Source: Pseudomonadota bacterium
GTDB taxonomy: Bacteria; Pseudomonadota; Gammaproteobacteria; Burkholderiales; SG8-39
Reading direction: 5' to 3'
Length of the DNA stretch: 64,000 nucleotides
Assembly (NCBI GenBank): GCA_021811085.1
Contig: JAJZPQ010000006.1
Coordinates: 4,914-68,913, forward strand
Notes under the pieces: generated by a model
The model's input: the letters and a program-made list of their open reading frames with translations, nothing else
Told to the model about the DNA's origin: nothing
The model's database searches: none
Shown here: in pieces, positions 10,706 to 42,918 of the stretch
Layout of the letters: each line of letters starts with the position of its first letter
Numbering within the stretch: position 1 is the stretch's first letter
Position numbers and translations under genes: made by a program

Positions 10706-10794
10706 AGGGGCGAGCCAAAGCGGTTGCTAAAGTCGCCCATGGGGGCATATTCAGCGCAAGCGGGTTTTTGTCAATCGATTACAGCGAGACGCGC

Positions 10795-12222: not shown

Positions 12223-12237
12223 GCGGAGATAGAAATC

Positions 12238-12852
12238 ATGAATTTCAGTCACGAAATGATCGAGAAGAACAACGCCCTGATGATCGTGCTGATCATCCTG
12301 GTGGTGGCGGTCGGCGGTTTGGTGGAGATCGTGCCGCTGTATTTCCAGAAATCCACCACTGAACCGGTGGCCGGATTGAAACCCTACACGCCGGTGCAGC
12401 TGGCCGGGCGCGATATCTACCTGCGCGAAGGCTGCTACAACTGCCATTCGCAAATGATCCGGCCGTTCCGTGCCGAAACCGAGCGCTACGGCCACTACTC
12501 GGTGGCGGGGGAGTTTGTCTACGACCATCCGTTCCAGTGGGGCAGCAAGCGCACCGGGCCGGACCTGCAGCGCGTCGGCGGCAAGTACAGCGATGACTGG
12601 CACCGCACCCACCTCAACAATCCGCGCGATCTGGTGCCGGAATCGAACATGCCTGGCTATCCCTGGCTCGCCAAAACCCAGGTGCGCAGCGACGACATCG
12701 AGGCCAAGATGCGCGCACTGCGCAGCGTCGGCGTGCCCTACAGCGATGAAGACATCGCCGGCGCGCGCAAACTGCTCGCCGGCAAGACCGAGCAGGATGT
12801 ATTGATCGCCTACCTGCAGGTGCTCGGCACCGCGCTCAAGACGGTGAGGTAG
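12238..12852 (+). CDS. ccoO: cbb3-type cytochrome c oxidase subunit II (monoheme)
   Basis: One N-terminal TM segment, the heme motif CYNCHS, and a conserved FixO-type sequence. Confidence 0.95.
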
Positions 12853-12854
12853 CC

Positions 12855-13022
12855 ATGGATATCAATACGCTGCGCAGTGTCATTACCGTGGTGTCCTTCG
12901 CGATATTCATAGCCATCGTCCTATGGGCGTACAGCGGGCGCAGCAAGGCGGCATTCGACCAGGCGGCGCGCCTGCCATTCGATGAAGAGGACGAAGCGAT
13001 CGAATACGGAGAGCGGAAATGA
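12855..13022 (+). CDS. ccoQ: cbb3-type cytochrome oxidase small subunit CcoQ
   Basis: 55-aa ORF found by hand; it is below the track cutoff. MDINTLRSVITVVSFAIFIAIVLWAYSGRSKAAFDQAARLPFDEEDEAIEYGERK. It sits between ccoO and ccoP, and its stop overlaps the ccoP ATG. Confidence 0.8.
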   Translation: MDINTLRSVITVVSFAIFIAIVLWAYSGRSKAAFDQAARLPFDEEDEAIEYGERK

Positions 13023-13957
13023 GCGATTTCACCGGCGGTTTCTGGAGCATCTATATCAGCATCATCACGATCGTGAGCATCATCGCCTGCGGCGTGCTGT
13101 TGCAGGTGATGAGCACGCGCAAGGTGTCCGGGTCGAAGGTGGAAACGACGGGACATGCCTGGGACGAGGATCTGGTCGAATTCAACAACCCGCTGCCGCG
13201 CTGGTGGATCTGGCTGTTTTATATAACCATCGTCTTCGCCCTGGCTTACCTCGCGCTTTATCCGGGGCTGGGCACCTACAGCGGCTCGTACGGATGGACC
13301 TCGAAAAAGCAATATGAAGAAGAGGTGGCCAAGGCCGAGGCCCAGTCGGCGCCGATTTACGACAAATACGTCAAGACCGACTTGAAGCAGCTGGCGGCCG
13401 ATCCCGCGGCGCGCGCGCTTGGGCAAAAGCTGTTCCTGAACAATTGTGCGCAATGCCACTCGTCGGACGCGCGTGGCGGCAAAGGCTACCCGAACCTGAC
13501 CGATGCGGACTGGATCTATGGCGGCGAGCCGGAGACGATCAAGGAGACGATCCTGAAGGGCCGGCAAGCCGTGATGCCTCCCTGGGGTCCGGTGCTGGGC
13601 GACGACGGGGTCAAGGACATGGCCCACTACGTGCTCTCGCTCAATGGCAGAACCTACGATCCCCTGCGCGCGGCGCGCGGCAAGGAGAAATTTGCCACCA
13701 CCTGCGTTGCTTGCCACGGTCCGGAAGCGAAAGGCAATCCGGCCATAGGTGCGGAAAACCTCACTAAGGTGGCCCTGCTCTATGGTGCGGACGAACCCTC
13801 GCTGATCGAGACGATCAGCAAGGGCCGCATGAGCACCATGCCGGCGCAAAAGGAACTCTTGGGCGAGGCCAAGGTGCACATACTCGCTGCCTATGTCTGG
13901 GGCCTCTCGAATTCAGCAGGGACTGCCGCGCCGCCGGCCAAACCCAGTGCGCAGTAG
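13019..13957 (+). CDS. ccoP: cbb3-type cytochrome c oxidase subunit III (diheme)
   Basis: N-terminal TM segment and two heme c motifs (CAQCHS, CVACHG). Confidence 0.95.
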   Translation: MSDFTGGFWSIYISIITIVSIIACGVLLQVMSTRKVSGSKVETTGHAWDEDLVEFNNPLPRWWIWLFYITIVFALAYLALYPGLGTYSGSYGWTSKKQYEEEVAKAEAQSAPIYDKYVKTDLKQLAADPAARALGQKLFLNNCAQCHSSDARGGKGYPNLTDADWIYGGEPETIKETILKGRQAVMPPWGPVLGDDGVKDMAHYVLSLNGRTYDPLRAARGKEKFATTCVACHGPEAKGNPAIGAENLTKVALLYGADEPSLIETISKGRMSTMPAQKELLGEAKVHILAAYVWGLSNSAGTAAPPAKPSAQ

Positions 13958-14080
13958 TCCCGGCGCCGCCCCTGCCCGGGCGCGCCGCAATATACCGGAC
14001 GAGTTCGAAGCGGCTGTGCTGCCGCCCGTTGCCGGGACGCCACGGACGGGGCGTGCGGGCATATTTCAAGGCAAACAGCA

Positions 14081-15532
14081 GTGAACGACAGACCCAAGGA
14101 AGCGGACTTGATCCAGGCGGAAGAGGTGGTCGAGCAGCCGCTATACGAGGTCCGCAAGGAAATCTACGCGCGCGCAGTCAGCGGATGGTTCGCGCGCTGG
14201 CGCTGGGCGCTGGTATTTTTCACGCAGCTGGTGTTCTACGGCGGGCCGTGGTTGATCTGGAACGGGCGCCAGGCGGTGCTGTTCGACCTGGTCGCGCGCA
14301 AGTTCTATATTTTCGGCATCGTTTTCTGGCCGCAGGACTTCATCTACCTCACCGGACTGCTGGTCGTATCCGCGCTGTCGCTGTTCCTGTTTACCGCAGT
14401 CGCCGGGCGACTGTGGTGCGGTTACGCCTGCCCGCAAACGGTATATACCGAGATATTCATGTGGATCGAGCGCAAGGTCGAAGGCGACCGCTCGGCGCGC
14501 ATGCGGCTCGATCAGGCGCCGATGTCGCCGCGCAAATTGGCGCTCAAGGCGACCAAGCACGGCCTGTGGATCCTGTTGTCGCTGTGGACCGGATTTACTT
14601 TCGTCGGCTACTTCACGCCTATCCATCAACTCGCCGCGGAGGTCGGCGCTCTGCTTGCCTCCGGAGCGCAGGCCGGCGCGCCCACGCTGGGCGCGTGGGA
14701 GATATTCTGGGTGCTGTTTTACGGCTTTGCCACCTACGGCAATGCGGGCTGGATGCGCGAGCAGGTGTGCAAGTACATGTGCCCCTATGCGCGCTTCCAG
14801 AGCGCCATGTTCGATCCGGATACCCTGGTCATTACCTACGATCGCGAGCGCGGCGAACCGCGCGGCCCGCGCGCGCGCAGGCTCGAACCCAAGTCTCTGG
14901 GGCTGGGGCATTGCGTCGACTGCGATATCTGCGTTCAAGTCTGTCCCACGGGGATCGACATACGCAACGGGCTGCAATACGAATGCATAGGCTGCGCGGC
15001 CTGCATCGACGGCTGCAATCAGGTGATGGCGAGAATGGGTTATCCCAAGGGCCTGATCCGCTACACCACCGAGAACGCGCTGCAGCAGAAGTTGACCGGG
15101 CGCCAGATCATCGCGCGCGCGCTGCGTCCGCGCGTGCTCATTTACACCGCGATCCTGTGGGCCATAATCCTGGCGATAGCGGTGACGCTGTACACGCGCG
15201 TGTCGCTCAAGGTGGATGTGATCCGCGACCGGGCGAGCCTGTCGCGCGAGGTCGACGGCCGCTGGGTGGAAAACATCTACCAGCTGCAAATCATGAATAC
15301 GCAGGAGAAGCCGCACCGCTTCATCATCCGCGCGAGCGGAGCGGACACGCTGCAGGTGGCCGACGCGGACACGGTGGATATCCCCGGCGCGACCACGCGC
15401 ATGGTGCCGGTGCGGCTGCGCATCGAGATGGGCAAGTTGCCGCCCGGGTCGCATAAAATCGAATTCGAAATCAGCGCGACGGACGACGCCGCCCTGATCG
15501 CGCGCGAGCGCTCGATATTCCTGGTGAGATGA
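14081..15532 (+). CDS. ccoG: cytochrome c oxidase accessory protein CcoG (4Fe-4S ferredoxin-type membrane protein)
   Basis: TM segments plus CVDCDICVQVCP and CIGCAACIDGC ferredoxin motifs. Located immediately after ccoP. Confidence 0.9.
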   Translation: MNDRPKEADLIQAEEVVEQPLYEVRKEIYARAVSGWFARWRWALVFFTQLVFYGGPWLIWNGRQAVLFDLVARKFYIFGIVFWPQDFIYLTGLLVVSALSLFLFTAVAGRLWCGYACPQTVYTEIFMWIERKVEGDRSARMRLDQAPMSPRKLALKATKHGLWILLSLWTGFTFVGYFTPIHQLAAEVGALLASGAQAGAPTLGAWEIFWVLFYGFATYGNAGWMREQVCKYMCPYARFQSAMFDPDTLVITYDRERGEPRGPRARRLEPKSLGLGHCVDCDICVQVCPTGIDIRNGLQYECIGCAACIDGCNQVMARMGYPKGLIRYTTENALQQKLTGRQIIARALRPRVLIYTAILWAIILAIAVTLYTRVSLKVDVIRDRASLSREVDGRWVENIYQLQIMNTQEKPHRFIIRASGADTLQVADADTVDIPGATTRMVPVRLRIEMGKLPPGSHKIEFEISATDDAALIARERSIFLVR

Positions 15533-15539
15533 GGTGGAG

Positions 15540-16070
15540 ATGAACGCGAACGGCGTGCGCGCACAACCCTGGTATCGCGAACCCTGGCCGTGGATACTGA
15601 TGGCCGGTCCGGCGGCAGTCGTGGTCGCCAGTTTCTTTACTGCCTGGCTTGCCGTGCGCAGCGACGACGGGCTGGTGGCGGACGATTATTACAAACAGGG
15701 CCTCACCATCAACAAGACGCTGCGGCGCAGCGAGACCGCCGAACGCCTGGGCATCAAAGCGGAACTCACGCTCGTCGATGGCCGCGTGCGGGTGCAGCTC
15801 GGCGGCGCGCGCAGCGGCGCGCTGACGCTGCTGCTGGCGCATCCTACGCGTGCGGGCATGGATCAGAAAGTGAAACTGAGCATGGTGCAGCCGGGTGTCT
15901 ACGAGGGGCAGCTGCAGCCGCTGCGGGCCGGGCGCTGGCATGTGTTTCTGGAGCAGAGCGACTGGCGCCTCGAGGGCGACTGGATGCTGCCCGCGACGGG
16001 TGCGCTGGCGCTCGACGCTCACACACAGTTGCCGGCGGGCGAGGAGTATCCGAAGGGGGGCGGACGATGA
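15540..16070 (+). CDS. ccoH: FixH/CcoH family protein
   Basis: N-terminus PWYREPWPWILMAGPAAVVVASF..DDGLVADDYYKQGL is typical of FixH. A GTG at 15534 is an alternative start. Confidence 0.8.
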   Translation: MNANGVRAQPWYREPWPWILMAGPAAVVVASFFTAWLAVRSDDGLVADDYYKQGLTINKTLRRSETAERLGIKAELTLVDGRVRVQLGGARSGALTLLLAHPTRAGMDQKVKLSMVQPGVYEGQLQPLRAGRWHVFLEQSDWRLEGDWMLPATGALALDAHTQLPAGEEYPKGGGR

Positions 16071-16366
16071 CGCAGAGACTGATGTGGATCCTGTGGCCGG
16101 CGTTTTTGGTCGCAGGGGTAGCCGACGGGATCATCTTCACCTTGTTCGATCCGCGCGACATGCAGGTGTTCGGCGAATCCGTGAATCTTGGTCGGACGGC
16201 GGTCTATTCGATCGGTTTCTTTGTGTTTTGGGCTTTCGCTGCGGCATCGAGTGCGCTAACCTGTTTCCTGCAGCGCTCGCCGTTCGAAGTGAACCGCTGT
16301 CCGCTGCCGCAGGCCCAAAGGCCGGAAGGCTGCCCCCGGCGCGGCCAGCCGGGCGGGTGCTGCTGA
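16067..16366 (+). CDS. small membrane protein with Cys-rich C-terminal tail, unknown function
   Basis: 99 aa: MTQRLMWILWPAFLVAGVADGIIF...FFVFWAFAAASSALTCF...CPLPQAQRPEGCPRRGQPGGCC. The ATG overlaps the ccoH stop (ATGA). It is in frame inside the track ORF 15590..16366. Confidence 0.55.
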   Translation: MTQRLMWILWPAFLVAGVADGIIFTLFDPRDMQVFGESVNLGRTAVYSIGFFVFWAFAAASSALTCFLQRSPFEVNRCPLPQAQRPEGCPRRGQPGGCC

Positions 16367-16388
16367 TCACTTCTCTAAAGGAGATATC

Positions 16389-16832
16389 ATGTTCAAGAAC
16401 ATACTGATTCCGACGGATGGCTCGAAATTGTCGGCGCGTGCGATTAAATCCGGAATAGTTTTCGCCAAAAGCATCAAGGCTGAGATTACAGGCTGCTACG
16501 TGGTCGAGCCGTTCCAGCCGTATTATTTCGGCGATTACATCCCGCCGGACATGCCCACGCCCAAGGAATTCGAGCGCCATGCGCGTGAGGCGGGGGAGAA
16601 ATACCTGGAGTACATCGCAGCGGCGGCGCGCGCCGCCAGGGTGAAGTACCGCGGCTCGGTGGTGATGGCCGATACGCCTTACGCGGGCATCATCAGCGCG
16701 GCGAGGAAGGGGAAGTGCGACCTGATTTTCATGGCCTCGCACGGCCGCAGCGGCCTGTCGGGCGTTCTGTTGGGCAGCGAAACCCACAAGGTGCTGACCC
16801 ACAGCAAGATACCGGTGCTGGTCTACCGCTAA
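16389..16832 (+). CDS. universal stress protein (UspA family)
   Basis: MFKNILIPTDGS...DLIFMASHGRSGLSGVLLGSETHKVLTHSKIPVLV. The GGAG RBS is in place. Confidence 0.9.
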   Translation: MFKNILIPTDGSKLSARAIKSGIVFAKSIKAEITGCYVVEPFQPYYFGDYIPPDMPTPKEFERHAREAGEKYLEYIAAAARAARVKYRGSVVMADTPYAGIISAARKGKCDLIFMASHGRSGLSGVLLGSETHKVLTHSKIPVLVYR

Positions 16833-16870
16833 GAGACTGTTAGGGGGCGTTTCCCCTGGTTCGCGCGGTG

Positions 16871-17614
16871 CTAGGCCGGATCGCGGCCGAGTACGCTCTT
16901 CAGGCCTTCGCTGTCGAGGATGCGTATGTTCTTTTGCTGCACGCCGATCAGGCCGTCTTCCTGGAACTTGGAGAAGGTACGGCTGACGGTCTCCAGTTTC
17001 AGGCCGAGGTAGCTGCCGATTTCCTCGCGCGTCATGCGCAAATTGAATTCAGAGGCGGAATAGCCGCGCGAGGTGAAGCGCTGCGACAGATTGAGCAGGA
17101 ACGCGGCCAGCCGCTCCTCCGCGCGCATGCTGCCCAGGAGCAGCATCACGCCGTGCTCGCGTACGATTTCGCGGCTCATGACTTTGTGAAAGTGCTGCTG
17201 CAGCATGAACATTTCACGCGACAGTTCTTCCAGGCGGCCGTAGGGAATGACGCAGACCTCGCTGTCCTCAAGCGCGACGGCGTTGCAGGAATGCTGGTCC
17301 GATCCGATGCCGTCCATGCCGAGCATGTCGCCGGCCATATGAAAGCCGGTGACCTGATCGCGGCCGTCTTCCATCACCAGGGTGGTTTTGAAAAAACCGC
17401 TGCGTATGGCGTAGAGGGACCCGAATTTCTCTTCGGAACGATAGACACTGTCGCCGCGCTTGACGCGTTTGCGCGTATAGACCATTTGGTCCAGTTTTTC
17501 GATCTCGTCCTGGCTGAGTCCGGTCGGCAGGCACATCTCGCGCAAACTGCAGTTCGAGCAGGCACTCTTGAGCGCGCGTATGTCGATTACGCGGGCTAGT
17601 TTGGGGGCGCTCAT
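16871..17614 (-). CDS. fnr: Fnr/Anr-type oxygen-sensing transcriptional regulator (paralog 2)
   Basis: MSAPKLARVIDIRALKSACSNCSLREMC provides the C-x2-C-x5-C cluster. YAIRSGFFKT..VTGFHMAGDMLG follows, and the recognition helix is the canonical ETVSR. I prefer the ATG at 17614 to the track GTG at 17650. Confidence 0.9.
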   Translation of the reverse strand: MSAPKLARVIDIRALKSACSNCSLREMCLPTGLSQDEIEKLDQMVYTRKRVKRGDSVYRSEEKFGSLYAIRSGFFKTTLVMEDGRDQVTGFHMAGDMLGMDGIGSDQHSCNAVALEDSEVCVIPYGRLEELSREMFMLQQHFHKVMSREIVREHGVMLLLGSMRAEERLAAFLLNLSQRFTSRGYSASEFNLRMTREEIGSYLGLKLETVSRTFSKFQEDGLIGVQQKNIRILDSEGLKSVLGRDPA

Positions 17615-17641
17615 GCCAGCTGCGCGTAAGGGAGTATTGGT

Positions 17642-17655
17642 TTGATCCACATCAA
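17642..17655. promoter_or_regulatory. consensus FNR/Anr box in the divergent fnr-hemN intergenic region
   Basis: TTGATCCACATCAA is a perfect TTGAT-N4-ATCAA. It lies about 55 nt upstream of the hemN ATG and about 28 nt upstream of the fnr ATG. Confidence 0.75.
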
Positions 17656-17709
17656 CATTTCCGTCTTGGATTTCGGCAGACTTGGCCGATGAAAGTAACT
17701 GCCTTACGC

Positions 17710-19104
17710 ATGAATCCGCCCCAGAATAACCTCCAGGTTGATGCCGAGTTATTGAGAAAATTCAATATCAGCGGCCCGCGCTACACTTCGTATCCGACCG
17801 CAGACCGCTTTGTCGAGGCTTTCGACGAGGCCGCGTATCGCAGCTGGCTGGCGAAACGAAACGTCGGCGGCATGGCCAGATCGCTCGCATTATACGTCCA
17901 CTTGCCTTTTTGCGACACTATTTGCTACTACTGCGGTTGTAACAAGATCGTCACCAAGGACCATGGCCGTTCAGCTAAGTATCTGAAGTATTTGGGTTGG
18001 GAGATCCGCATGCAGAGCGCCGAGCTGGGTGGCCGGCGGCGCGTGACGCAAATGCATTGGGGCGGGGGCACGCCTACTTTTCTAAGCCAAGCCGAACTCA
18101 CCGAGCTGATGCAGATGATACGCGAGAGCTTCGATCTCGATGCGCACGGCGAATTTTCGATCGAAGTGGATCCGCGCAAGGTCGGGGCGGAAAAAGTGGC
18201 GCTGCTGGGCCAGTTGGGCATGAACCGCATCAGCGTCGGAGTGCAGGATTTCAATCCCGAAGTGCAGCGCGCCGTCAATCGCATGCAGAGCGTGGAAGAG
18301 ACGGTCACGGTGATCGACGCGGCGCGCAAGCACGGTTTCCAATCCGTCAACATCGATCTGATCTACGGTCTGCCCAGGCAAACGCTGGAAGGTTTCAGCG
18401 CGACGCTGGCGCAGGTGATCGCGTGCTCGCCGGACCGCATTGCACTGTATAACTACGCGCATCTGCCGGCCGTGTTCAAGCCGCAGCGGCGGATTCTGGA
18501 TGCCGACCTGCCGCAGCCTGAGGTAAAGCTTCAGCTCATGATCATGGCGATCGAAACGCTGCTGGAAGCGGGCTATGTCTACATCGGCATGGATCATTTC
18601 TCCAAGCCGGACGACGACCTTGCGGTGGCGCAGCGGCAAGGCCGCCTGTACCGCAATTTTCAGGGCTACTCGACCTACGGCGACTGCGACCTGATCGGAT
18701 TGGGTGTATCGGCGATAGGAAAAATCGGCCCGACCTACAGCCAGAACGTGCGCACCTTGGATGAGTATTACGACCGCCTCGACAATGACCTGCTGCCGGT
18801 GATGCGCGGCATCGAAGTCACTGCCGACGATCTGGTGCGGCGCGCCGTGATCCAGGCGTTGTCCTGCCATTTCGAGTTGTCGATGGAGGCGATCGGAATC
18901 GCGCACCTGATCGATTTTCCCAGCTATTTCGCCACCGAGCTGGCGGAGTTGCGCGCGTATGCCAAGGACGGGCTGGTGGAAATCGACGGCGATTGGATCG
19001 TGGTCACGCCCAAAGGCCGGCTGCTGGTGCGCATTCTGTGCATGGTGTTCGACAAATACCTGCGCCAGGCAAGCAGGCGCGCGAGTTATTCCAAGGTCAT
19101 CTAG
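17710..19104 (+). CDS. hemN: oxygen-independent coproporphyrinogen III oxidase (radical SAM)
   Basis: GPRYTSYPTADRF and the radical-SAM motif CDTICYYCGC, with the length and C-terminal domain typical of HemN. Confidence 0.9.
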   Translation: MNPPQNNLQVDAELLRKFNISGPRYTSYPTADRFVEAFDEAAYRSWLAKRNVGGMARSLALYVHLPFCDTICYYCGCNKIVTKDHGRSAKYLKYLGWEIRMQSAELGGRRRVTQMHWGGGTPTFLSQAELTELMQMIRESFDLDAHGEFSIEVDPRKVGAEKVALLGQLGMNRISVGVQDFNPEVQRAVNRMQSVEETVTVIDAARKHGFQSVNIDLIYGLPRQTLEGFSATLAQVIACSPDRIALYNYAHLPAVFKPQRRILDADLPQPEVKLQLMIMAIETLLEAGYVYIGMDHFSKPDDDLAVAQRQGRLYRNFQGYSTYGDCDLIGLGVSAIGKIGPTYSQNVRTLDEYYDRLDNDLLPVMRGIEVTADDLVRRAVIQALSCHFELSMEAIGIAHLIDFPSYFATELAELRAYAKDGLVEIDGDWIVVTPKGRLLVRILCMVFDKYLRQASRRASYSKVI

Positions 19105-19107
19105 ACC

Positions 19108-19812
19108 ATGGTGGCGGGGTTTGCGGCCGCCTTCCTGATTGGACTTCTGGGCGGCGTCCATTGCGTCGGCATGTGCGGCGGCATAGTCGGCGCGTTCACG
19201 GTGCAACTGCGACAAAACCGCCAGCGCACATGGGACTTGCATCTGGCGTACAACGCGGGGCGCATCGTGAGTTATGGCGCGGCCGGGGCAATCATGGGCA
19301 TGATCGGCGGCGCCGGGTTGTTGTTCAGCCACATCCTGCCGATGCAGCTGCTGCTCTACCTGCTGGCGAACCTCGTGCTGGTCGGTTTGGGCCTGTATCT
19401 TGCCGGGCTGGGCAATCAACTGGCCCGGGTGGAGGCGCTGGGTGCGTGGCTGTGGCGCCGGATTCAACCGTACGGCGCCAGACTCCTGCCCGCCGACACG
19501 CTAGCCAAGGCCTTCGCGCTGGGCAGCTTGTGGGGCTGGCTGCCCTGCGGCCTGGTGTACGGCATGCTTGCGACCGCTTTGGTGAGCGGCGGGGCCGCCA
19601 GCGGCGCTGCTGTGATGCTCGCGTTCGGCCTGGGCACGTTGCCGAATCTGCTGCTGGCGGGGATGGCGTTCAAGCGTTTGCGCGACTTTACTTCCCATCG
19701 GCGCGTCAAGCTGGCCGCCGGCCTGCTGGTCGCGGGATTCGGCTTCGCCGGTTTGGCCAAAGCCGCTCATTTGGGCGAGCATATCCGCCAGGGCTTGTTG
19801 TGTATCATGTGA
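19108..19812 (+). CDS. DsbD_2 / TauE-SafE-like integral membrane protein
   Basis: 234 aa and polytopic. GGVHCVGMCGG and WGWLPCGLVYG motifs resemble the membrane proteins commonly encoded next to hemN/cco accessory genes. Confidence 0.6.
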   Translation: MVAGFAAAFLIGLLGGVHCVGMCGGIVGAFTVQLRQNRQRTWDLHLAYNAGRIVSYGAAGAIMGMIGGAGLLFSHILPMQLLLYLLANLVLVGLGLYLAGLGNQLARVEALGAWLWRRIQPYGARLLPADTLAKAFALGSLWGWLPCGLVYGMLATALVSGGAASGAAVMLAFGLGTLPNLLLAGMAFKRLRDFTSHRRVKLAAGLLVAGFGFAGLAKAAHLGEHIRQGLLCIM

Positions 19813-20299: not shown

Positions 20300-21931
20300 A
20301 TGCTCGATTGGCTCAAGCAATTCGGCGCCAAGCCGGATCATCCGCTGCGCGACGCGCAGGCGGCGCAGGAAGCGCTCGCGGGTCTGCCCGAGGAGGTGTC
20401 GCTCGATACCCTGGAGCAAATCTCGCACTGGGTCGCTTCGGTCAAGGATACGCCGGGTTTTTCCTGCGACGACCGCCTGGCGGTGATGTGCCTGCTCGAC
20501 CAGGCCGCCGCCGCGCATGTCGGCCCGCTGTTCGATGAGTTCTTTCAAAAGATCCATCAGCAGGACCGGGCTGTGCGCAATATCTGGGATGCGCTGTGCG
20601 AGTACTGGGGGCGGCTCTCCGAGGGCTACGCCCAATGCGTCGCCGATTTCGAGCACGGCGAAAAGGGTGCAAAGCTCGTGGAGCCGCAGATGCCGCAGGC
20701 ACTGGCGCGCTCCCTGCGTGCGACCAGCGAGCGTTTCAAGCTGCGCTATTTGCGCTTTATCGGCATCGAGCCCAAGGCATGGGCGCCGCTGTACCGCCTG
20801 TACGCGTTCGCCGAGCTCAAGCAACTGGACGACAAGCCGGTCGTCGCCTATGTGCGTGAAGCACATACCACCGTGCGCGCCGAGTTGCAGAAGATCATGT
20901 TGTTGTACCTGGCGGCGCCGCACGAGTTTCCGCCGGTGCAGCTGGAACTCGCGTTTCGCATCCTGGCGCGGTTTGCGATCTCCGCGGATTGGTCGCGGGT
21001 GCCGCAGCCCGAGTGCAATTTCGGCTTCAATTTGGCCGGAGGCGGACCACCGGTGCTCGCGCCGGCAAAGGAGGCGCCCGGCGCAAACAAGCGCTTTGTC
21101 GGCGGCGGGCAGGCGCTGCCCAAGCTGGCCGAACTGCGCCTGTTATGCGAAAAGAACATGCTCAGCGAAGAGCAGCGTTTCGGCAAAGAGTTCTCGCCGG
21201 CGCAGATCATCACTGTGATCAAGCACCTGCAGCTCTACCTCGGCGTCGCGCCGCCACACCGGCGTTACGCGCGAATCAAAGCGGCAGCGCAGGTGAGCGT
21301 AGTGCATGGGCTCAAACCGATTTGCCAGCGCGTGACCAAGATCGAATTGGGCTCCAACGTGGCGCTCAGCGAAGACATGGCCCTCAAAGAGAAGACGTCC
21401 AACATCATGAAGCTGGTCGCGGAGGAAATCGAATCCATTCCGGAAACCTGGGTGCAACAAGACCTGAGCGAATGGGGGCTGGGCGCCGAAATACCGCCCG
21501 ATCTGGGCAAGTGGGCCGAGCCGGGCAAGCTCTGCGGCATACAGCTGCAATCAGACAAGGTGTGGTGGGTCGGCATCATCCGGCGCATGGACGCGGGTGC
21601 GGGGCTGCGCTGCGGCATACGCATATTCTCCAAGCGCCCGGTTTCCGTGTGGCTGCGGGTGATCGGTGCGGACGAACACAAGGCCGACAACTGGGCTTCG
21701 TCGACCGGGTCGTTTTCCTTCGATTACATGCGCGCGATCATGCTGCCCGATGCGCTGAAATCGCACGATCATCCGGTGATGATCCTCGAGAACAAGAGCT
21801 TCGTTCCCGGCCAATCGTGCGAGGTCATGATGGGCGAACACAGCCGCATCATCAAACTGGTGGAGTTCCTCGAGGAGGGCGAGGATTACATGCGCGCCGC
21901 ATTCGAGTGGCAGCAGGCGGACAAGGCCTGA
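20300..21931 (+). CDS. hypothetical protein (543 aa), possible degenerate PilZ-like C-terminal region
   Basis: Long ORF with coding-like composition that starts at MLDWLKQFGAK. I recognise no family. RRYAR (21260-21274) and DLSEWG (21461-21478) resemble the RxxxR / DxSxxG PilZ signatures, but the spacer is atypical at about 67 aa. Confidence 0.6.
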   Translation: MLDWLKQFGAKPDHPLRDAQAAQEALAGLPEEVSLDTLEQISHWVASVKDTPGFSCDDRLAVMCLLDQAAAAHVGPLFDEFFQKIHQQDRAVRNIWDALCEYWGRLSEGYAQCVADFEHGEKGAKLVEPQMPQALARSLRATSERFKLRYLRFIGIEPKAWAPLYRLYAFAELKQLDDKPVVAYVREAHTTVRAELQKIMLLYLAAPHEFPPVQLELAFRILARFAISADWSRVPQPECNFGFNLAGGGPPVLAPAKEAPGANKRFVGGGQALPKLAELRLLCEKNMLSEEQRFGKEFSPAQIITVIKHLQLYLGVAPPHRRYARIKAAAQVSVVHGLKPICQRVTKIELGSNVALSEDMALKEKTSNIMKLVAEEIESIPETWVQQDLSEWGLGAEIPPDLGKWAEPGKLCGIQLQSDKVWWVGIIRRMDAGAGLRCGIRIFSKRPVSVWLRVIGADEHKADNWASSTGSFSFDYMRAIMLPDALKSHDHPVMILENKSFVPGQSCEVMMGEHSRIIKLVEFLEEGEDYMRAAFEWQQADKA

Positions 21932-23155: not shown

Positions 23156-23719
23156 CTAGAACAGGTGTACTGCGGTCGGCGCGAAAAATCCGAGGCTGCA
23201 GAACACGATCCCGACCAGCCCGAGCCCGCCAGCAATCCAAGTGAGCAGGACGACGCCGGTGATGATTTCGGCCGATGCGAGCACGATGGCGATCTGGAGC
23301 GCGGCCGAGGCAATCTCGTAATTGTGGTAGGCAGCGAGCGAGCGATCGCGCTGGTCCTCAGCGGTCTTTGCGCGCGCGGCGAGTTCTTTTCGTCCTTCTT
23401 GCGTTTGCGGCTCCGACTCGTAGCGGGCAATCCCTGCCTTCCAGTCGGCGATGCGCTTTTGCATGGCCTCTCTTTGCTCAGGACGGGAGACCTGCGCCAA
23501 TTCCACTTCGAGCGCTTCTGCCGCGGTGCGCAGCGTAGTGCTGCGTATGGTCTTCGCCTGGAAGAAGGTCCACAGGTTGGAAGCATGGATGTTGTGGCTT
23601 AGCGCAGCTGTTTGTGCACCCTTGCCCAAGGTCTCGGCAAACGCGAGCACCAAGGCGAGGATGGAAATCAGCAGCGCGATTTTCTTGTTGGACGGGTCTA
23701 CGTGGCCGTGTCCGGACAT
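23156..23719 (-). CDS. DUF4337-like membrane-anchored protein
   Basis: MSGHGHVDPSNKKIALLISILALVLAFAETLGKGAQT...HASNLWTFFQAKTIR, with a C-terminal TM segment. The family was recognised from memory. Confidence 0.6.
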   Translation of the reverse strand: MSGHGHVDPSNKKIALLISILALVLAFAETLGKGAQTAALSHNIHASNLWTFFQAKTIRSTTLRTAAEALEVELAQVSRPEQREAMQKRIADWKAGIARYESEPQTQEGRKELAARAKTAEDQRDRSLAAYHNYEIASAALQIAIVLASAEIITGVVLLTWIAGGLGLVGIVFCSLGFFAPTAVHLF

Positions 23720-23921
23720 ATTGCATGGCTCCAATCAACGTTTGGTACGAAATACAAGGTACGAGGCCGCTGCGGCAATTTGCAGACGGGTTGCAAGTTT
23801 ATCAGGCGGCGGCCAGGCCGGAGGCGGGGGATGCTGACAAGCCCGGAAAACGCGGTCGGAATCCGTCGTATCGTCTGCGTGGGATATAATCGGCGCGTCG
23901 TTCGCGAACAAGGAGCGCTCC

Positions 23922-24209
23922 ATGTCTAGTGTCGGTTATCACGAGCCAGTCGAGGAATTGTCCGATGAGACGCGCGATATGCACAGGGCAATCGTGTCGT
24001 TGATGGAGGAGCTGGAGGCGGTCGATTGGTACAACCAGCGCGCTGACGCGTGCAAGGACAAAGAACTCAAGGCGATCCTCGCGCACAATCGCGACGAGGA
24101 AAAAGAACATGCCTCGATGGTGCTGGAATGGATCCGGCGCAAGGATCCGGCGTTTTCGAAGGAGCTGAAGGATTACCTGTTCACCGACAAGGCCATCGCG
24201 CACAAGTAA
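23922..24209 (+). CDS. EncFtn-type (encapsulated-ferritin-like) ferritin-like protein lacking a C-terminal extension
   Basis: HRAIVSLMEELEAVDWYNQRADACKDKELKAILAHNRDEEKEHASMVLEWIRR closely matches the EncFtn core as I remember it from Rhodospirillum rubrum, and the Glu/His metal ligands are conserved. The protein is 95 aa and ends 8 aa after YLFT. Confidence 0.8.
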   Translation: MSSVGYHEPVEELSDETRDMHRAIVSLMEELEAVDWYNQRADACKDKELKAILAHNRDEEKEHASMVLEWIRRKDPAFSKELKDYLFTDKAIAHK

Positions 24210-24337
24210 TTGCGCTTAGGGCTGTTGCAGAACGGGGGGAGAGGCCCCGAAGGTCTCGATCCCCCTCGAGGGGAAAGCCCTCCGGGGGCGGGTGGAGGAT
24301 GCCGGAAACTTGGTTTTCAGCGGCGCCTGCGTCGCGA

Positions 24338-24490
24338 TTAAAGATGCAGATTGCCCGCGCCGAAAAGTCCGATCAAGCCGATGACAATCAAATACAGCGC
24401 GACGATGTAATTGAGCAGCCGCGGAATGATCAGGATCAGAATCCCGGCGATCAGCGATACCAGGGGAGCAAGCGCCAAGGTGATGTTCAT
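24338..24490 (-). CDS. DUF3096-like small membrane protein (50 aa)
   Basis: Hand translation gives MNITLALAPLVSLIAGILILIIPRLLNYIVALYLIVIGLIGLFGAGNLHL. A GGA-rich RBS lies upstream. The ORF is below the track cutoff. Confidence 0.55.
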   Translation of the reverse strand: MNITLALAPLVSLIAGILILIIPRLLNYIVALYLIVIGLIGLFGAGNLHL

Positions 24491-24720
24491 GGAGTAATCC
24501 TTTCTTCAGAGAAGGCGATGCGCGAAGTGCCGGGGTTCGGCCTTGCGTCGGTCGTACGCCATGTCAACATTTACGCCGAAGATGAGGCCGGCACCGTACG
24601 CTCCCGCACATAGCAGCATCGGTTGCTTGGCGGAAAAGGTTGCACGGATATGAAAAAAGCCGGAAACCCTTGCTGCTGCTTGGTCTTCCGGCTTCTGGCG
24701 AACTTCTTTGAAGGTTCGGA

Positions 24721-24795
24721 TGGTGGGCGATACTGGGATCGAACCAGTGACTTCCACCGTGTGAAGGTGGCACTCTACCGCTGAGTTAACCGCCC
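24721..24795 (-). tRNA. tRNA-Val (anticodon CAC)
   Basis: The reverse complement GGGCGGTTAACTCAGCGGTAGAGTGCCACCTTCACACGGTGGAAGTCACTGGTTCGATCCCAGTATCGCCCACCA folds as a cloverleaf. The anticodon loop is TTCACAC, and the CCA end is encoded. Confidence 0.9.
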
Positions 24796-26530: not shown

Positions 26531-27229
26531 ATTTAATCAAATAGTTAAGGCGCGCTAGGCGCTAAGCTGCAGCCCCGTGCCAAATTGGTGCCAAACACGC
26601 GGCGCAAAAGTTGCCTCGCCCATCATCTCAGAGGGCACTCCTTTGTTCCATGTTGGCAGCGACGCATGGTCCGCCCGCAGCGCGAGCGAGGACGGACGCG
26701 TCGGCGATGCTGTGGCCCTAGGCACCCATGCTCATCCTTGCCTGTCGCATGCCTCTGCCTGTACCGTCATGGCGTTTCCCATTACCGTGGCGTGCGGCTG
26801 CGTGCGAGAGAAACGCCGCCCGCACGCCACCGTGGAAAACGCCGCAGATCTTTAGTTTGTCGTGTTGACGCTTGACACCTCCACTTTTGTGGATCACGAA
26901 CGTGCAGTCTTCCTGCGATCAGACTGCAGCAGGGTCGCAGTCGGCCTGCAGTCCTTTTGCAGTTTATTCGCCGTCTTTACGATAACCGCCATTGTTCTCT
27001 CTCAATTCTGATTCATCGGGTTTTGCCACCTTCTGGTTGCTGCCTTGATGCTGCTGGTGTGTAATGCCTGTCAGGTTAGTGTTTCTGTCCGTCTCGCCTG
27101 CTCAGCAGAGCGAGATCTACGAGGGACGCGGGACACCACTCCCGTTTCGTGCCGTTTGCTTTGCTGCTTGCCGCCGCGGCACGCGGCATTGGCGTCGATG
27201 GCGCTCCCTGTGGGAAGTCGATCCGTCGA

Positions 27230-27830
27230 GTTGAGCCATAACCCAAGGCTCGGGGGTGCGCGGGTTGCGCGCGAGATCAAACGACGCCCGTCGGGAACGG
27301 GCAGAGGGACGAACCGCATTGCGCGGTTGCTCGGTGTGATGCGCCAGGGAGCTCATCACTGGGTCGCGGAACGGGGAATATCGGCTGGAGAAGCCCGCCG
27401 ATATTGGTTCCGCACGCAGCGTCACTACCGGCTGGCGCCGGGGTAGTGACGCTGCGATTGGCGCAGATGGTTGACGCACACGGACAGCAGGTTGTTTGGC
27501 GCAGGTATCACGACGGACGAAGCCGCCGCGATCCATTGGCGCAGACCCGCTACGAGCTTACGAGCGCGATAAAGACTGCCGCAGCTTTCAACGGACTGAA
27601 ACAGCATTTACGGTGCCGGGACGAAGCCGCCCAGGCGAGAGGTACAAGCTTACGATTATCACCAGCCCTGCGGCCACCGGATCTCAGGGGATCTGTCCGG
27701 TTTCAGGCGCTCTTGCGAGCAAAGGCGATGCGCTAACGGGCATCAACCGGGCTGACTCAGCCAGCGTGAAAATTCTATTCGACGAACCGCGCGGGCGACT
27801 TGCTTCAATCGGCGCTGATCGCTCCTGTCC
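27230..27830 (+). pseudogene. possible heavily decayed IS3-family OrfB transposase remnant
   Basis: There are only weak echoes, spread over three frames: ..GRGTNRIARLLGVMRQ.., ..QTRYELTS..FNGLKQ.., ..KILFDEPRGRLASIG.. (compare FYNxxRxHSSLG). No intact ORF is present. Confidence 0.25.
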
Positions 27831-28139
27831 TTGCATCACAGGACCACACGGATCAACGAACGACAGGCCCCGCAGTTGACGGTGTGACCGCGACGACCTC
27901 TGCGAGTTCCATGCGCTACTACAAAATATTCACGCCGAGGTGTTTGCACTGCTAACACCTGATGCGATCGACTGGCGAGCGCGCAACGACTTCCCGCGCC
28001 GTCGGTATGTGCGCCCCTTTGCCAAACACAAGTGTCAAGCCGAATCGTGGCCTCGACGAAGCCATGAATCGGGGAGACAGCACGGCCGCGCCATGGAAAT
28101 ATGACTCCTCATTCCGCTACGAGCGATGAGGTGACAAAC

Positions 28140-28364
28140 ATGTCCGATCAATACCAGCAAGGGCTATCCATTCTTCGACGTAAGCAGGTCGAAGCCCGCA
28201 CGGGGCTTGCGCGCAGCACGATTTATCACCACATCAAGGCCGGCACATTTCCGCGACCGATCCCTCTCGGTCCCCGCGCGGTCGGGTGGCTCGAATCCGA
28301 CGTGAGCAACTGGATCGCCGAGCGGGTACGGATGGCGCGCGACGGTGCCAATCGCTCTGTTTGA
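28140..28364 (+). CDS. alpA: AlpA family phage/island regulatory protein (MerR-like HTH)
   Basis: MSDQYQQGLSILRRKQVEARTGLARSTIYHHIKAGTFPRPIPLGPRAVGWLESDVSNWI. A GAGG RBS lies 8 nt upstream. Confidence 0.8.
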   Translation: MSDQYQQGLSILRRKQVEARTGLARSTIYHHIKAGTFPRPIPLGPRAVGWLESDVSNWIAERVRMARDGANRSV

Positions 28365-28398
28365 TCGGATGCGCCTGGGGCAGTGGCACGAGGATGGC

Positions 28399-28998
28399 TC
28401 ACGCCGCGATTGTTGCGCGTGCGCCGGCCATGCCGTAGCGATCGAGCAGTCCCGTGTAGCGTACGGTGAAGTTCTTTTCTTCGGTCAGATTCTTGAACGT
28501 GGCCGACAGGCTGTCGCTGCGGTGCTCCTGCGGGGCGCCACCGGCTTGCCACAGGGCGTTCTGCAGCCCCTTGGACAACGTCTCGAAGCTCTCGCCACCT
28601 TCAACCACTTCCACATGCTCCCAGCACGAGAAGGCCAGCACGAAGTGGTACAGAATGTGCGCAAACGGCGCGTTGGCAATCGTGATGTGCAACTCGCCCA
28701 TCGCGGTGAAGTCCAACAGGCCACGATGGCCCGGCGCATGCTCTTGCGGGAAGAGCACTTCCTTGGGTGGTCCTTCCAGCGCGCGCCATTGCCGGACGTG
28801 ACGCTGCAGGGTGCGCAGCACGCCGTCGGGGAAGCTCTCGGGGTGATCGTCCTGGAGCTTACGCAGCAGCGTGATGGCCATCAGCTTGGTCGCGCTCTTG
28901 AGCAGCGGCACGACCTCATTGTCCCAGACCTGGGCAAACGGATCGGTTCGCGAGCGCCAATAGCGTCGGGGGGTTCTGTGAAGGCAACTTTGAGGCAC
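28399..28998 (-). pseudogene. 3'-truncated DDE (rve-type) transposase gene, possibly an IS21-like IstA type
   Basis: RRYWRSRTDPFAQVWDNEVVPLL..DGVLRTLQRHVRQWRA..GLLDFT..ILYHFVLAFSCWEHV..PQEHRSDSLSATFKN covers the N-terminal HTH and the first two catalytic Asp regions only. It ends about 35 nt from alpA. The family assignment is from memory. Confidence 0.55.
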
Positions 28999-29245
28999 TT
29001 CTGCTCCCGGCTTTCATCGAGCAACGCTTGCGCTTCTGCCGTGCCCGGCTCAAGCACCACGACGTCAAGCTCGTTTTCACTCGCTATCGCGATGATGCGC
29101 AAGTTCGCCAAACCCGGGTGATACGCCAGGATTCGGTGGCGCAGGCATCCCGATTACCGAGCGGATGCCACAACAGCTTCGGATACCTCGATTCGCATCG
29201 CATGATGACCGTGAAGCGCCCGGCCACTAGGCGTTACGGCGTTCA

Positions 29246-29347
29246 TCATTTCCAGTTTGCCAATATTTGTGACGCGCATCTCGACGTCTTGCTCTCCGCC
29301 GCACAGCACGTAACCCCGCGCTCACCGCGATTACGCTTCATCGCGCG
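29246..29347 (-). pseudogene. IS30-family transposase gene, distal fragment (continuation after the IS200-like insertion)
   Basis: Reads RAMKRNRGERG.. and then decays to a stop. Joining it to 31925..32038 restores ..NRQKSISRAMKRNRGERG.., the IS30-type HTH (xSxISRExxRN). Confidence 0.55.
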
Positions 29348-29368
29348 GCTAAACCAACATAGGATATC

Positions 29369-29385
29369 CCCCGGCTCTGCCGGGG
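29369..29385 (+). repeat. IS200-like left-end hairpin
   Basis: CCCCGGC-TCT-GCCGGGG, a 7-bp stem. The identical 17-mer occurs at 31901-31917. Confidence 0.75.
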
Positions 29386-29402
29386 AGGCAGTAGAAGTTT
29401 GA

Positions 29403-31313
29403 GTGCGCCGGGAGACCGGCAAGGAGTAGATGGTGCAAGTCCATTGTGATGAAGGCGTAGCGAGCCACATCAGCCCTGAGCCGTGCGCAGGCACCCGCGA
29501 GGGTGTAGGCGAAGCGTCGGCAGGGGAACGTGCAGGCCAGCCATTGAGCCGCGAAAGATACTTGATTTCGGGCGCCGACGCTGTTCAAACGGCGGAAGGC
29601 AACATGAACGGGTGCGCTCACGCGAGCGCCCGGACAGCCCGGCGTGGTCGGAGACCCTGGCATGCACGGACGCTCTTTGCGCGGGAACCGGGAGGTCTCC
29701 GGACTGGCCAGTGCGGCAGATGTGCGCTGGTCCGCATTGGGAAGGCGAGGAGCCGAAGCCAATGATGCACGGTCTGGAGAAGTCAGACTCCTCCATAAGA
29801 GCGAAGAAGTCGGCGAACAAACCTGGGCGACCGGGGGCGGAGTCGATGGAGCAAAGGGAGGGGACCAAGGAGAACACGGGAGAGTCACCCGCGAGCCGGA
29901 CACTGAGCCGGGAAATCGTGACTGGAGGGCTGGACCGTGTACGGCAAGCAGCAAGAGGCAACAAGAAGGAGCGGTTCACAGCGCTGATGCACCATGTGAC
30001 GATAGATCTTCTGAGGCAGGCGTACTACTGGCTTAAACGCAGTGCGGCCCCAGGGGTAGATGGCGTCACCTGGCATGACTATGAGGACAACCTAGAAGCG
30101 AAGCTCACCGATCTGCATACGCGCGTCCACCGTGGCAGTTATCACCCAATGCCATCGAGGCGCAAATACATCGCCAAGCCGGACGGGCGCAAACGCCCGC
30201 TCGGAATTGCCGCGCTGGAGGACAAGATCATCCAGCGAGCGGTGGTGGAGGTGCTCAATGCGATCTACGAGCAGGACTTCCTGGGGTTCTCGTATGGATT
30301 CCGGCCCGGGCGCGGGCAGCACGACGCGCTCGATGCACTGGCGGTCGGAATTTCGCAGCGGCACGTGAACTGGATTCTGGACGCGGACATCGCCGCTTTC
30401 TTTGATACGGTTTCCCACGACTGGATGCTTCGGTTCCTGGAACACCGTATCGGCGATCGCCGCTTGCTTCGCTTGATTGGCAAATGGCTCAAGGCGGGAG
30501 TGATGGAAGAGGGCGTGGTTTCAGCAACCGAGACCGGAACCCCGCAAGGGGCGGTGGTTTCACCAGCGCTAGCCAACGTTTATCTGCATTACGTCTTCGA
30601 CTTGTGGGCGCATCGCTGGCGGCAGCAGCAAGCCCGCGGTGCGGTTATCTTCGTGCGATATGCCGACGATGTAGTGGCGGGATTTGAGCACGAAGGAGAG
30701 GCCAGGCGCTTTCTGGTGGAGTTGCGGCAGCGAATGGAGAAATTTGCGCTATCGATGCATCCCACCAAGACGCGATTGATCGAGTTCGGTCGCTACGCGG
30801 CTGAGCGCCGAGGTAAGCGCGGTCTGGGTAAGCCGGCGACGTTCAACTTTCTTGGCTTCACGCACATCGCTGGACGGACTCAAAAGGGCCGCTTCCAGTT
30901 GATACGCAAGACCCGGCGTGATCGCATGCGGGCGAAGCTCAAGGCCATCAAGGAAGAACTACGACGGCGCATGCACCACTCCATTCCGCAACAGGGGCAG
31001 TGGCTGCGGCAGGTCGTGCGCGGCTACTTTGCGTACCACGCCGTGCCAACCAATCTCCAAAGTCTGTCGGCCTTTCGGTACTTTGTGGGGCGGCTCTGGC
31101 TGAAGACGCTGCGGCGTCGCAGTCAGAAGAACCGCTTCTCGCGGGACCGGCTTACCCGACTCGCTGCGGACTGGCTCCCTTCTCCGCGAATCCTTCACCC
31201 ATGGCCCGATGCCCGCTTTGTCGTCAAACATCCAAGGTAAGAGCCCAGTGCCCGAATGGGGCCCGCTGGGATCCGTGCGGGGGGTGCGCAGAAATGGGCA
31301 TCCCTACCGCGAT
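29403..31313 (+). mobile_element. bacterial group II intron (ribozyme plus RT/maturase ORF)
   Basis: The 5' end is GTGCG at 29403. A domain V-like helix with a 2-nt bulge (GAGCCCAGTGCCCGAATGGGGCCCGCTGGGATC) lies at 31241-31273. A domain VI-like helix (GGGGTGC/GCATCCC) has a bulged A at 31306, 7 nt before a ..GAT 3' end. The 3' boundary is inferred. Confidence 0.75.
29762..31240 (+). CDS. group II intron reverse transcriptase/maturase
   Basis: RT motifs RKYIAKPDGRKRPLGIAALEDKIIQ, TPQGAVVSPALANVYL and VRYADDVV (YADD) are followed by a maturase (X) domain. I see no obvious HNH domain. The start codon is uncertain. Confidence 0.9.
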   Translation: MMHGLEKSDSSIRAKKSANKPGRPGAESMEQREGTKENTGESPASRTLSREIVTGGLDRVRQAARGNKKERFTALMHHVTIDLLRQAYYWLKRSAAPGVDGVTWHDYEDNLEAKLTDLHTRVHRGSYHPMPSRRKYIAKPDGRKRPLGIAALEDKIIQRAVVEVLNAIYEQDFLGFSYGFRPGRGQHDALDALAVGISQRHVNWILDADIAAFFDTVSHDWMLRFLEHRIGDRRLLRLIGKWLKAGVMEEGVVSATETGTPQGAVVSPALANVYLHYVFDLWAHRWRQQQARGAVIFVRYADDVVAGFEHEGEARRFLVELRQRMEKFALSMHPTKTRLIEFGRYAAERRGKRGLGKPATFNFLGFTHIAGRTQKGRFQLIRKTRRDRMRAKLKAIKEELRRRMHHSIPQQGQWLRQVVRGYFAYHAVPTNLQSLSAFRYFVGRLWLKTLRRRSQKNRFSRDRLTRLAADWLPSPRILHPWPDARFVVKHPR

Positions 31314-31334
31314 CATTTAAGGGAGTCCACCGCA

Positions 31335-31380
31335 GAAACTTCCAACCGTGAGCCGCCAAAGCACACGAAAAGGGAGTTTC
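31335..31380 (+). promoter_or_regulatory. stem-loop sequestering the tnpA Shine-Dalgarno sequence
   Basis: GAAACTTCC (31335-31343) pairs with GGGAGTTTC (31372-31380) over 9 bp including one G-U. The 3' arm contains the SD just upstream of the ATG at 31384. Salmonella IS200 is known to occlude its RBS in the same way. Confidence 0.55.
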
Positions 31381-31383
31381 GCG

Positions 31384-31815
31384 ATGGACGAGTACGAAAG
31401 TTTAAGTCATACGAAGTACGAATGCATCTATCACGTGGTGTTCATACCGAAGGGTCGGCGCCGAGCGTTGTACGGGGAGTTGAGGAAACACCTGGGCGAG
31501 ATATTTCGGCGGTTGGCAGAGCAAAAGGAGAGTCGCATCGAGGAGGGGCACCTGATGTCGGATCACGTGCACATGATGATCCGGATTCCGCCGAAGTACG
31601 CAGTGTCGCAAGTCATTGGTTTCATCAAGGGAAAGAGCGCGATTCACCTGGCGCGGGTATACGGAGAGCGGAAGCGAAATTTCGTTGGGCAGAGTTTCTG
31701 GGCACGAGGGTATTTTGTGTCGACCGTGGGCAGGGATAAAGAGATGATTCGCGACTACATCCGGCATCAGGAAGAAGAGGACAAGCGGTTGGACCAGTTG
31801 AAGCTTTGGCAATAG
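31384..31815 (+). CDS. tnpA: IS200/IS605 family Y1 (HUH) transposase TnpA
   Basis: MDEYESLSHTKYECIYHVVFIPKGRR..SDHVHMMIRIPPKY carries the HUH motif, and WARGYFVSTVG carries the catalytic Tyr. Confidence 0.9.
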   Translation: MDEYESLSHTKYECIYHVVFIPKGRRRALYGELRKHLGEIFRRLAEQKESRIEEGHLMSDHVHMMIRIPPKYAVSQVIGFIKGKSAIHLARVYGERKRNFVGQSFWARGYFVSTVGRDKEMIRDYIRHQEEEDKRLDQLKLWQ

Positions 31816-37750: not shown

Positions 37751-37844
37751 CGCGCCATCCCGGTTTATCGAGATTGTCTCAAGCCGGAAAAACGGAATCA
37801 AACAGGCTTGCCTGTTTTTCCATCCACTCTCTCCTGGAGGACGC

Positions 37845-38552: not shown

Positions 38553-38628
38553 GGCATAGGCACAGTTCCCCGGCAGACGCGAATTTGGCCAACACGGACA
38601 CCACAGTTTGAAACCGAGGCAAAAAAAC

Positions 38629-39894: not shown

Positions 39895-39996
39895 GGAGGA
39901 TCGCTACCTGCAGTCGCGACGAGGGGCCGTGCGCCGCCTATGTATCTGAACAGACGGCCGCATATCAGTCGCAATGGGACCAACGAGGACGACATC

Positions 39997-41532: not shown

Positions 41533-41541
41533 GGGATGCGC

Positions 41542-42882: not shown

Positions 42883-42918
42883 TCCCGTATCACCTAATAC
42901 ACATGGAGAACAAGCAAA

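Follow-up and report, generated by a model that had tools for sequence, protein, structure and literature searches.

A solitary, tailless EncFtn-like gene in an uncultured Burkholderiales lineage: a member of a known clade that likely encodes a free ferroxidase

The EncFtn proteins that serve as encapsulin cargo (FLP-TP), represented by R. rubrum Rru_A0973 (PDB 5DA5) and its counterpart from H. ochraceum (5N5F), consist of two-helix subunits with characteristic ferroxidase, entry and exit residues, carry a disordered tail of 30–50 residues that ends in GSLGIGSLK or LTVGSL, and are encoded directly upstream of a Family-1 encapsulin. Without the shell, EncFtn keeps its ferroxidase activity and loses iron storage (He 2016, PMC5012862; bioRxiv 785121). 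In the archaeal EncFtn-encapsulin fusion (P. furiosus, 5N5E / 2E0Z), the same EncFtn-type domain is covalently joined to the shell via a link of 8 residues past the core. Ferritin, bacterioferritin and Dps also carry a di-iron ferroxidase on a four-helix bundle, as found in the EncFtn dimer (He 2016, PMC5012862), but their subunits of ~160 aa build closed 24- or 12-mer cages, with the mineral stored inside. Beside these systems stands a tailless group that was named "Non-EncFtn" and described as "lacking the encapsulin sequence" in 2016 (PMC5012862), and that was named "s-FLP", with PDB 3K6C as its type, in a review of 2024 (PMC11202242; Biomolecules 2024, 14:624). According to this review, 3K6C, an unpublished apo structure of NE0167 from Nitrosomonas europaea, forms a decamer, and LFTD(E/N)KPIAHE is the putative C-terminal motif of the class. 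Ten NE0167 chains make up the crystal entry. A literature search by locus tag and accession for NE0167 and its s-FLP relatives yielded this review only, and no functional or expression data were found.

The window, that is, the whole 64-kb stretch of DNA that was analysed, contains a gene (Table 1) whose product, by its sequence, is an ordinary member of this tailless EncFtn-like clade. An earlier note on this DNA implied that a tailless stand-alone EncFtn was a novelty; since the class has been set apart in 2016 (PMC5012862) and again in 2024 (PMC11202242), and a structure has been deposited, no new kind of system is involved. What makes the gene worth attention is its spread: a 95-residue protein encoded in no fewer than 593 species genomes, with 84–96% identity across the 80 closest loci, represents a real gap as to physiological role.

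Table 1. Features of the s-FLP gene and its surroundings in the window; L001 and L009 denote the closest relatives among the 80 other loci compared
Feature	Coordinates	Strand	Basis and remarks
EncFtn-like gene (s-FLP / Non-EncFtn class), tailless, 95 aa	23922..24209, stop codon included	+	PF22277, TIGR04535, identity to 3K6C
Shine-Dalgarno AAGGAG, 6 nt 5' of ATG	23910..23915	+	Read from sequence; AGGAGA-type k-mers in other loci
TATAAT hexamer, putative -10 element of the gene's own promoter	23885..23890	+	GGGATATAATCGG in the window, GGAATATAATCGG upstream of the L001 orthologue
Structured, GC-rich spacer towards which s-FLP and DUF3096 converge	24210..24337, 128 nt	.	67% GC; palindrome CCCCTCGAGGGG at 24262-24273
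DUF4337 membrane protein, divergent from s-FLP; context only	23156..23734	-	PF14235 E 2.4e-44; public call starts at ATG 23719, 187 aa
DUF3096 membrane protein, 50 aa, convergent with s-FLP; context only	24338..24490	-	PF11295 E 1.5e-17
tRNA-Val(CAC); context only	24721..24795	-	ARAGORN, Rfam RF00005; syntenic in L001 and L009

Several lines of evidence place the window protein in the family. Its match to the Pfam EncFtn-like profile PF22277 spans positions 2–85 of 85, which is the whole domain (E value 4.7e-45; score 151.7 bits, cutoff 27 bits), and it scores 136.7 bits (cutoff 125) with NCBIfam TIGR04535, "encapsulin-associated ferritin-like protein". The alignment with the latter runs over model positions 1–88 of 114, so that nothing in the protein corresponds to the tail section of the model. 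The name that automated annotation attaches to such a gene, despite there being no encapsulin nearby, can mislead encapsulin surveys. When aligned with R. rubrum EncFtn, in the site numbering of He 2016 (PMC5012862), the ferroxidase centre comprises E30/Y37/E60/H63 (E32/Y39/E62/H65 in R. rubrum), the entry site E29/E32 (E31/E34) and the exit site H55/E59/E62 (H57/E61/E64). All these residues are present and are invariant across 81 loci, namely the window locus and the 80 best matches among the at least 593 species genomes. Hence, the earlier note was right to identify the protein as EncFtn-type and its ferroxidase site as intact, and the reported lack of a C-terminal targeting tail stands as well; only the distance from YLFT to the end of the chain, given there as 8 aa, has to be corrected to 7 (DKAIAHK), the protein ending in LFTDKAIAHK. 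The features that delimit the clade, namely a length of ~95 aa, no long C-terminal extension and an ending of the type LFT-D/E/N-K-P-I-A-H-x, were recognized in the window protein, and the same pattern recurs in the 81 loci and in Table 2 of PMC11202242.

The closest described relative is NE0167 (3K6C), which also has 95 aa, shows 82% full-length identity to the window protein (E 1.5e-48), and shares with it the metal-site residues, the ending LFT-x-K-x-IAH-x and the lack of a targeting peptide. The two proteins are separated by 17 substitutions and differ in host, the window coming from an uncultured Burkholderiales lineage, and in gene neighbourhood; among the differences is W36, a tryptophan in 81/81 loci that corresponds to R. 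rubrum W38, as against Leu in NE0167. The tailed EncFtns 5DA5, 5N5F and P0192 are more distant, at ~60–65% identity (over residues 2–92 for the two FLP-TP proteins) and E values of ~1e-34, and in a rough NJ tree the window protein sits with the short forms, which are mostly together. While the two-helix subunit and the ferroxidase, entry and exit residues are common to FLP-TP and the window protein, the latter has neither the tail nor a shell gene nearby. The similarity to the P. furiosus fusion is weak (E 0.004), and no shell is joined to the window protein. In contrast to the cage ferritins, with which there is no significant sequence match, it is a half-bundle of 95 aa that is predicted to form an open ring with no cavity. 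In the Pfam scan, the ferritin, Bfr and Dps families gave no match, and rubrerythrin PF02915 reached 16.9 bits, under its cutoff of 22.8. Membership among the rubrerythrins or classical ferritins, which have a full four-helix-bundle subunit (joined by a rubredoxin domain in rubrerythrin), was therefore rejected for a protein of just 95 aa with scores below cutoff.

Relatives of the window protein are widespread: the protein collection contains more than 8000 close homologues. The best 80 loci carry labels of Beta- and Gammaproteobacteria, Nitrospirales, Acidobacteria and other lineages, including Burkholderiales, Rhodocyclaceae, Thiobacillaceae, Chromatiaceae, relatives of Competibacteraceae, and Paracoccaceae. 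Many carriers are nitrifiers, sulfur oxidisers, or organisms of the Accumulibacter or Competibacter types.

We argue that the window protein probably acts on its own, as a free decamer with ferroxidase activity, and that it would oxidise Fe(II) but not store the iron. Because the upstream neighbour is divergent and the downstream one convergent, the gene is monocistronic in the window, and it would be transcribed alone and translated from a strong ribosome-binding site. Judging by homology, two-helix subunits of 95 aa would pair into four-helix dimers, each with one di-iron centre made of E30, Y37, E60 and H63 from two chains, and five such dimers would close into a ring-shaped decamer, as predicted from the ten-chain entry 3K6C. 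Fe(II) would enter at E29/E32, which would face the central hole, be oxidised at the centre, and be released at H55/E59/E62 on the outer rim. Having no targeting peptide and no adjoining shell gene, the protein would most likely be free in the cytoplasm, where such an "open" ferroxidase could lower the Fe(II) pool and hence Fenton chemistry, possibly at the expense of O2 or H2O2. As the ring could not store its product, the Fe(III) would have to go to other acceptors, e.g. bacterioferritin or Dps. A non-storage role had been suggested in the earlier note, and it is what one would naturally expect of a protein that has an intact ferroxidase site but lacks both a targeting peptide and a neighbouring shell gene.

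The C-terminus deserves separate consideration. In a representative library of 1404 clusters (E <= 1e-3), the tailed relatives, all at 70% identity or less, have tails of 30–50 aa with GSLGIGSLK or RLTVGSL, and the tailless ones end exactly 7 residues past LFT, with [DE]KP[IL]AH-x, even at 56–63% identity. The penultimate residue, His94, is invariant in 81/81 loci. The 7-residue C-terminus (K-x-I-A-H-x) is under selection and probably contributes a ligand, or a point for docking, close to the exit site. In EncFtn, the C-terminus emerges at the outer rim (He 2016, PMC5012862), and the heptapeptide of the window protein would leave the ring at the same place. The strict conservation of the motif, together with that of most surface positions, could equally reflect an obligate partner. 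A more far-reaching version of the free-ferroxidase proposal, which we put forward only tentatively, is that the tailless EncFtn ring is a distinct, shell-independent iron-handling device of hundreds of bacterial species, in which the invariant K-P-I-A-H-x on the outer rim serves to dock, or to hand iron to, a universal partner encoded elsewhere, e.g. bacterioferritin, Dps or an iron chaperone. If true, a partner encoded elsewhere would explain how almost all residues of s-FLP are frozen across phyla without any conserved neighbour genes. The comparative results narrow what experiments should address: the gene has neither a conserved neighbour nor a shell gene close by, its synonymous sites are saturated at a very low pN, and the penultimate His never varies.

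A different use of the same di-iron site has to be weighed, namely that it does not handle bulk iron but acts as a rubrerythrin-like scavenger of peroxide or oxygen, or as a redox/iron sensor, in microaerophilic, gradient-dwelling bacteria. Such a role is consistent with the weak, sub-threshold similarity of the protein to the rubrerythrin and COQ7 di-iron families, with the capacity of the ferroxidase chemistry of ferritin-like proteins to consume H2O2, with the frequent occurrence of nitrifiers, sulfur oxidisers and Accumulibacter or Competibacter types among the carriers, and with the cluster of microaerobic genes that lies beside the gene in the window lineage (cbb3 oxidase, FixG/FixH, Fnr, HemN, Usp). 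We nevertheless consider it unlikely: other loci do not share the microaerobic neighbourhood, the upstream regions show no enrichment of FNR boxes, and the invariance of the entry, centre and exit sites altogether fits iron as the substrate. In the upstream regions of the 80 loci, Fur boxes and 7-1-7 PerR/Fur-like boxes, like FNR boxes, were not enriched over shuffles, and no common operator of these types was found that would tie the gene to iron or oxidative stress. The only clear common signal is the Shine-Dalgarno sequence, in the form of AGGAGA-type k-mers, seen in 37 loci versus 4.5 expected (200 nt upstream of the gene, 80 loci).

Could the decamer, instead of being free, be loaded into a shell encoded at a distance? 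The search for shell genes speaks to this point. None of the 39 window ORFs that were scanned against Pfam (all 35 called genes of at least 230 aa and four of 199–229 aa, from 51 called genes) matched Linocin_M18, and tblastn with two Family-1 encapsulins gave nothing in the 64-kb window (best E 8.3), in keeping with the absence of an adjacent encapsulin gene asserted in the earlier note. An ORF of 283 aa without a Pfam match, at 37779-38630 on the minus strand, was considered as a shell gene and discarded as the shadow of a GntR-type regulator on the opposite strand. In 85 s-FLP loci (80 genome loci and 5 contigs with the identical protein), tblastn with the A. noterae and T. maritima encapsulins found none within 10 kb (best E 0.9); the downstream same-strand ORFs that were checked (n=10) are unrelated enzymes. 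In the positive control, Acetoanaerobium noterae, a Family-1 encapsulin of 264 aa is encoded 15 nt downstream of a tailed EncFtn (the tail ending in GNGLNIGKMK); its match to 3DKT, the T. maritima encapsulin, has an E value of 4.5e-55. The window protein lacks both hallmarks of encapsulin cargo EncFtn (FLP-TP), the targeting tail and the adjacent shell gene.

The suggestion that LFT-D/E-K-P-I-A-H-x is itself a targeting motif nevertheless has a basis: the 2024 review lists it as a putative targeting peptide and points out that the archaeal fusion-FLPs are tethered by 8 residues only (PMC11202242), secondary cargo encoded apart from the shell operon has precedent, and the motif is strongly conserved, with its histidine at position 94 never replaced in the 81 loci. 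The motif, however, does not contain the hydrophobic shell-binding consensus L/F-x-V/I-x-x-L/I (GSLxIGSL-type), no encapsulin lies within 10 kb in the 85 loci or anywhere in the window, and the group was set apart by He 2016 as being without the encapsulin sequence (PMC5012862), so that we regard loading into a distant shell as quite improbable.

The flanking genes named in the earlier note, DUF4337, DUF3096 and tRNA-Val, were confirmed by Pfam, ARAGORN and Rfam. The note also proposed the two membrane proteins as possible partners, and this part did not hold up. Proteins of the window neighbourhood (DUF4337, DUF3096, HisPhos, p121, GltX and p669) were compared with the 80 loci by tblastn and turned out to be common to the nearest relatives only. 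DUF4337 adjoins the s-FLP gene in 1/80 other loci (L001, the closest relative) and DUF3096 in 0/80, being missing even from L001 and L009. In L009, the synteny HisPhos / s-FLP / tRNA-Val / gltX is kept without DUF4337 or DUF3096, and in L001 an extra ORF of 77 aa separates DUF4337 from the s-FLP gene. All-against-all clustering of neighbours within 4 kb on either side revealed no real family in more than 7/81 loci; at 10 kb, the sole family above this level was a generic ABC ATPase (15/81). In the absence of a conserved neighbour family, the s-FLP gene is to be considered solitary, and its membrane-protein neighbours a lineage-specific coincidence. It is accordingly very unlikely that s-FLP works with DUF4337 and/or DUF3096, for instance as a membrane-tethered iron-oxidising or iron-exporting module, even though the window and a further four metagenome contigs from this organism have the three genes side by side and DUF4337 also adjoins s-FLP in L001; since they lie on opposing strands, they do not form an operon.

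As for the immediate surroundings of the gene, the TATAAT hexamer is a weak -10 candidate, since a sigma-70 two-hexamer scan did not find a full promoter for the s-FLP gene. The spacer downstream, described in the earlier note as GC-rich and palindromic, is indeed GC-rich and folds more stably than its shuffles (MFE -67.1 kcal/mol, z = -3.0), but the palindrome CCCCTCGAGGGG alone is not significant, as 18/100 window shuffles contained at least one match to it at no more than one mismatch. The plus strand yielded no canonical intrinsic terminator, and the spacer is not conserved in L001; it is probably a hairpin or terminator region. Beside the s-FLP gene, the window lineage has the microaerobic cluster described above.

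The s-FLP gene is under extreme purifying selection. In the 81 loci, 57 of the 95 positions are at least 95% identical; relative to the window gene, synonymous sites are saturated (median pS 0.76) at a pN of 0.076, and, where dS could be estimated, dN/dS is ~0.01–0.06. The notion that the protein is a decaying remnant, an EncFtn truncated after the loss of its encapsulin, to which its shortness relative to the characterised EncFtns and the lack of a nearby shell gene might point, is hardly credible in view of a length fixed at 95 aa, these dN/dS values, catalytic residues that are invariant across at least 81 loci of several phyla, and a strong, conserved ribosome-binding site. Recent horizontal transfer as the source of the high identity was rejected as well: GC3 of the s-FLP genes varies between 0.21 and 0.97 in step with the GC content of the flanks (r = 0.90), which speaks for long residence in the hosts, and the saturation of synonymous sites combined with low pN indicates that the high identity results from long-term constraint. 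No s-FLP gene was found in phage records, and the plasmid records with the gene number 7/72,556 (one of them with a truncated copy). Cys44, which is invariant in the 81 loci, was considered as an s-FLP-specific marker and dropped, the tailed homologue P0192 having Cys44 too.

The tailless, 95-aa EncFtn-like proteins (s-FLP), including that encoded at 23922-24209 in the window, pass the cutoff of NCBIfam TIGR04535, and it is because they score above this cutoff that they are called "encapsulin-associated ferritin-like protein" in public records, for instance in Accumulibacter and Nitrosomonas, with no encapsulin nearby.

Small genes around the s-FLP locus are turning over fast. The DUF3096 gene, which in the window is convergent with the s-FLP gene, is missing from L001, the locus of the closest relative, where a 77-aa ORF (9534-9767, minus strand) is inserted between the DUF4337 and s-FLP genes. 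For the gap at 24506-24720 of the window, the public annotation gives a plus-strand ORF of 31 aa instead of the minus-strand candidate that we list in the table. As to the s-FLP gene itself, on the metagenome contig L084, where the encoded 95-aa protein is identical to that of the window, an IS-type DDE transposase gene (DDE_Tnp_1, 101-1732) lies immediately 5' of it; this adjacency hints that the gene is mobilised now and then.

Features of the window
Feature	Position	Strand	Remarks
Microaerobic cluster	10768-19812		cbb3 oxidase genes (ccoN, FixO, FixP), FixG, FixH, Usp, HemN, DsbD_2
Fnr/Crp-family regulator	16871-17650	minus	within microaerobic cluster
Possible 37-codon ORF	in gap 24506-24720 (DUF3096 to tRNA-Val)	minus	just upstream of DUF3096
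Terminator-like hairpin	in gap 24506-24720		after tRNA-Val
AlpA-like gene	28101-28364		probable mobile-element patch
Integrase-like fragment	28399-28998	minus	weak rve match; Y4rL_C in public gene call
Group II intron	29436-29657		Rfam RF02005, 183 bits
Reverse-transcriptase ORF of group II intron	29483-31240		
IS200-type Y1 transposase	about 31348-31815		last element of probable mobile-element patch

Upstream of the s-FLP gene, the window carries a microaerobic respiration gene cluster, with a perfect FNR box, TTGATCCACATCAA, at 17642 in the fnr/hemN interval; in other lineages, such a neighbourhood beside s-FLP genes is not kept. The gene for a conserved 543-aa protein (20300-21931) retains its synteny in L001 and in L009, another locus of a close relative; this protein has no match in the local Pfam copy and is labelled PF27104 (FimW_N) by the public gene call.

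The segment at 26531-31815, downstream of the genes for tRNA-Ala and tRNA-Glu, is probably a degraded mobile-element patch, the first ~1.6 kb of which (26531-28100) contain no convincing ORF.

Finally, the segments at 120-3901 and 38608-44751 together hold paralogous sets of genes for acyl-CoA carboxylase-type carboxyltransferases (three copies) and family III CoA-transferases (two copies), each set being accompanied by its own IclR- or GntR-type regulator.
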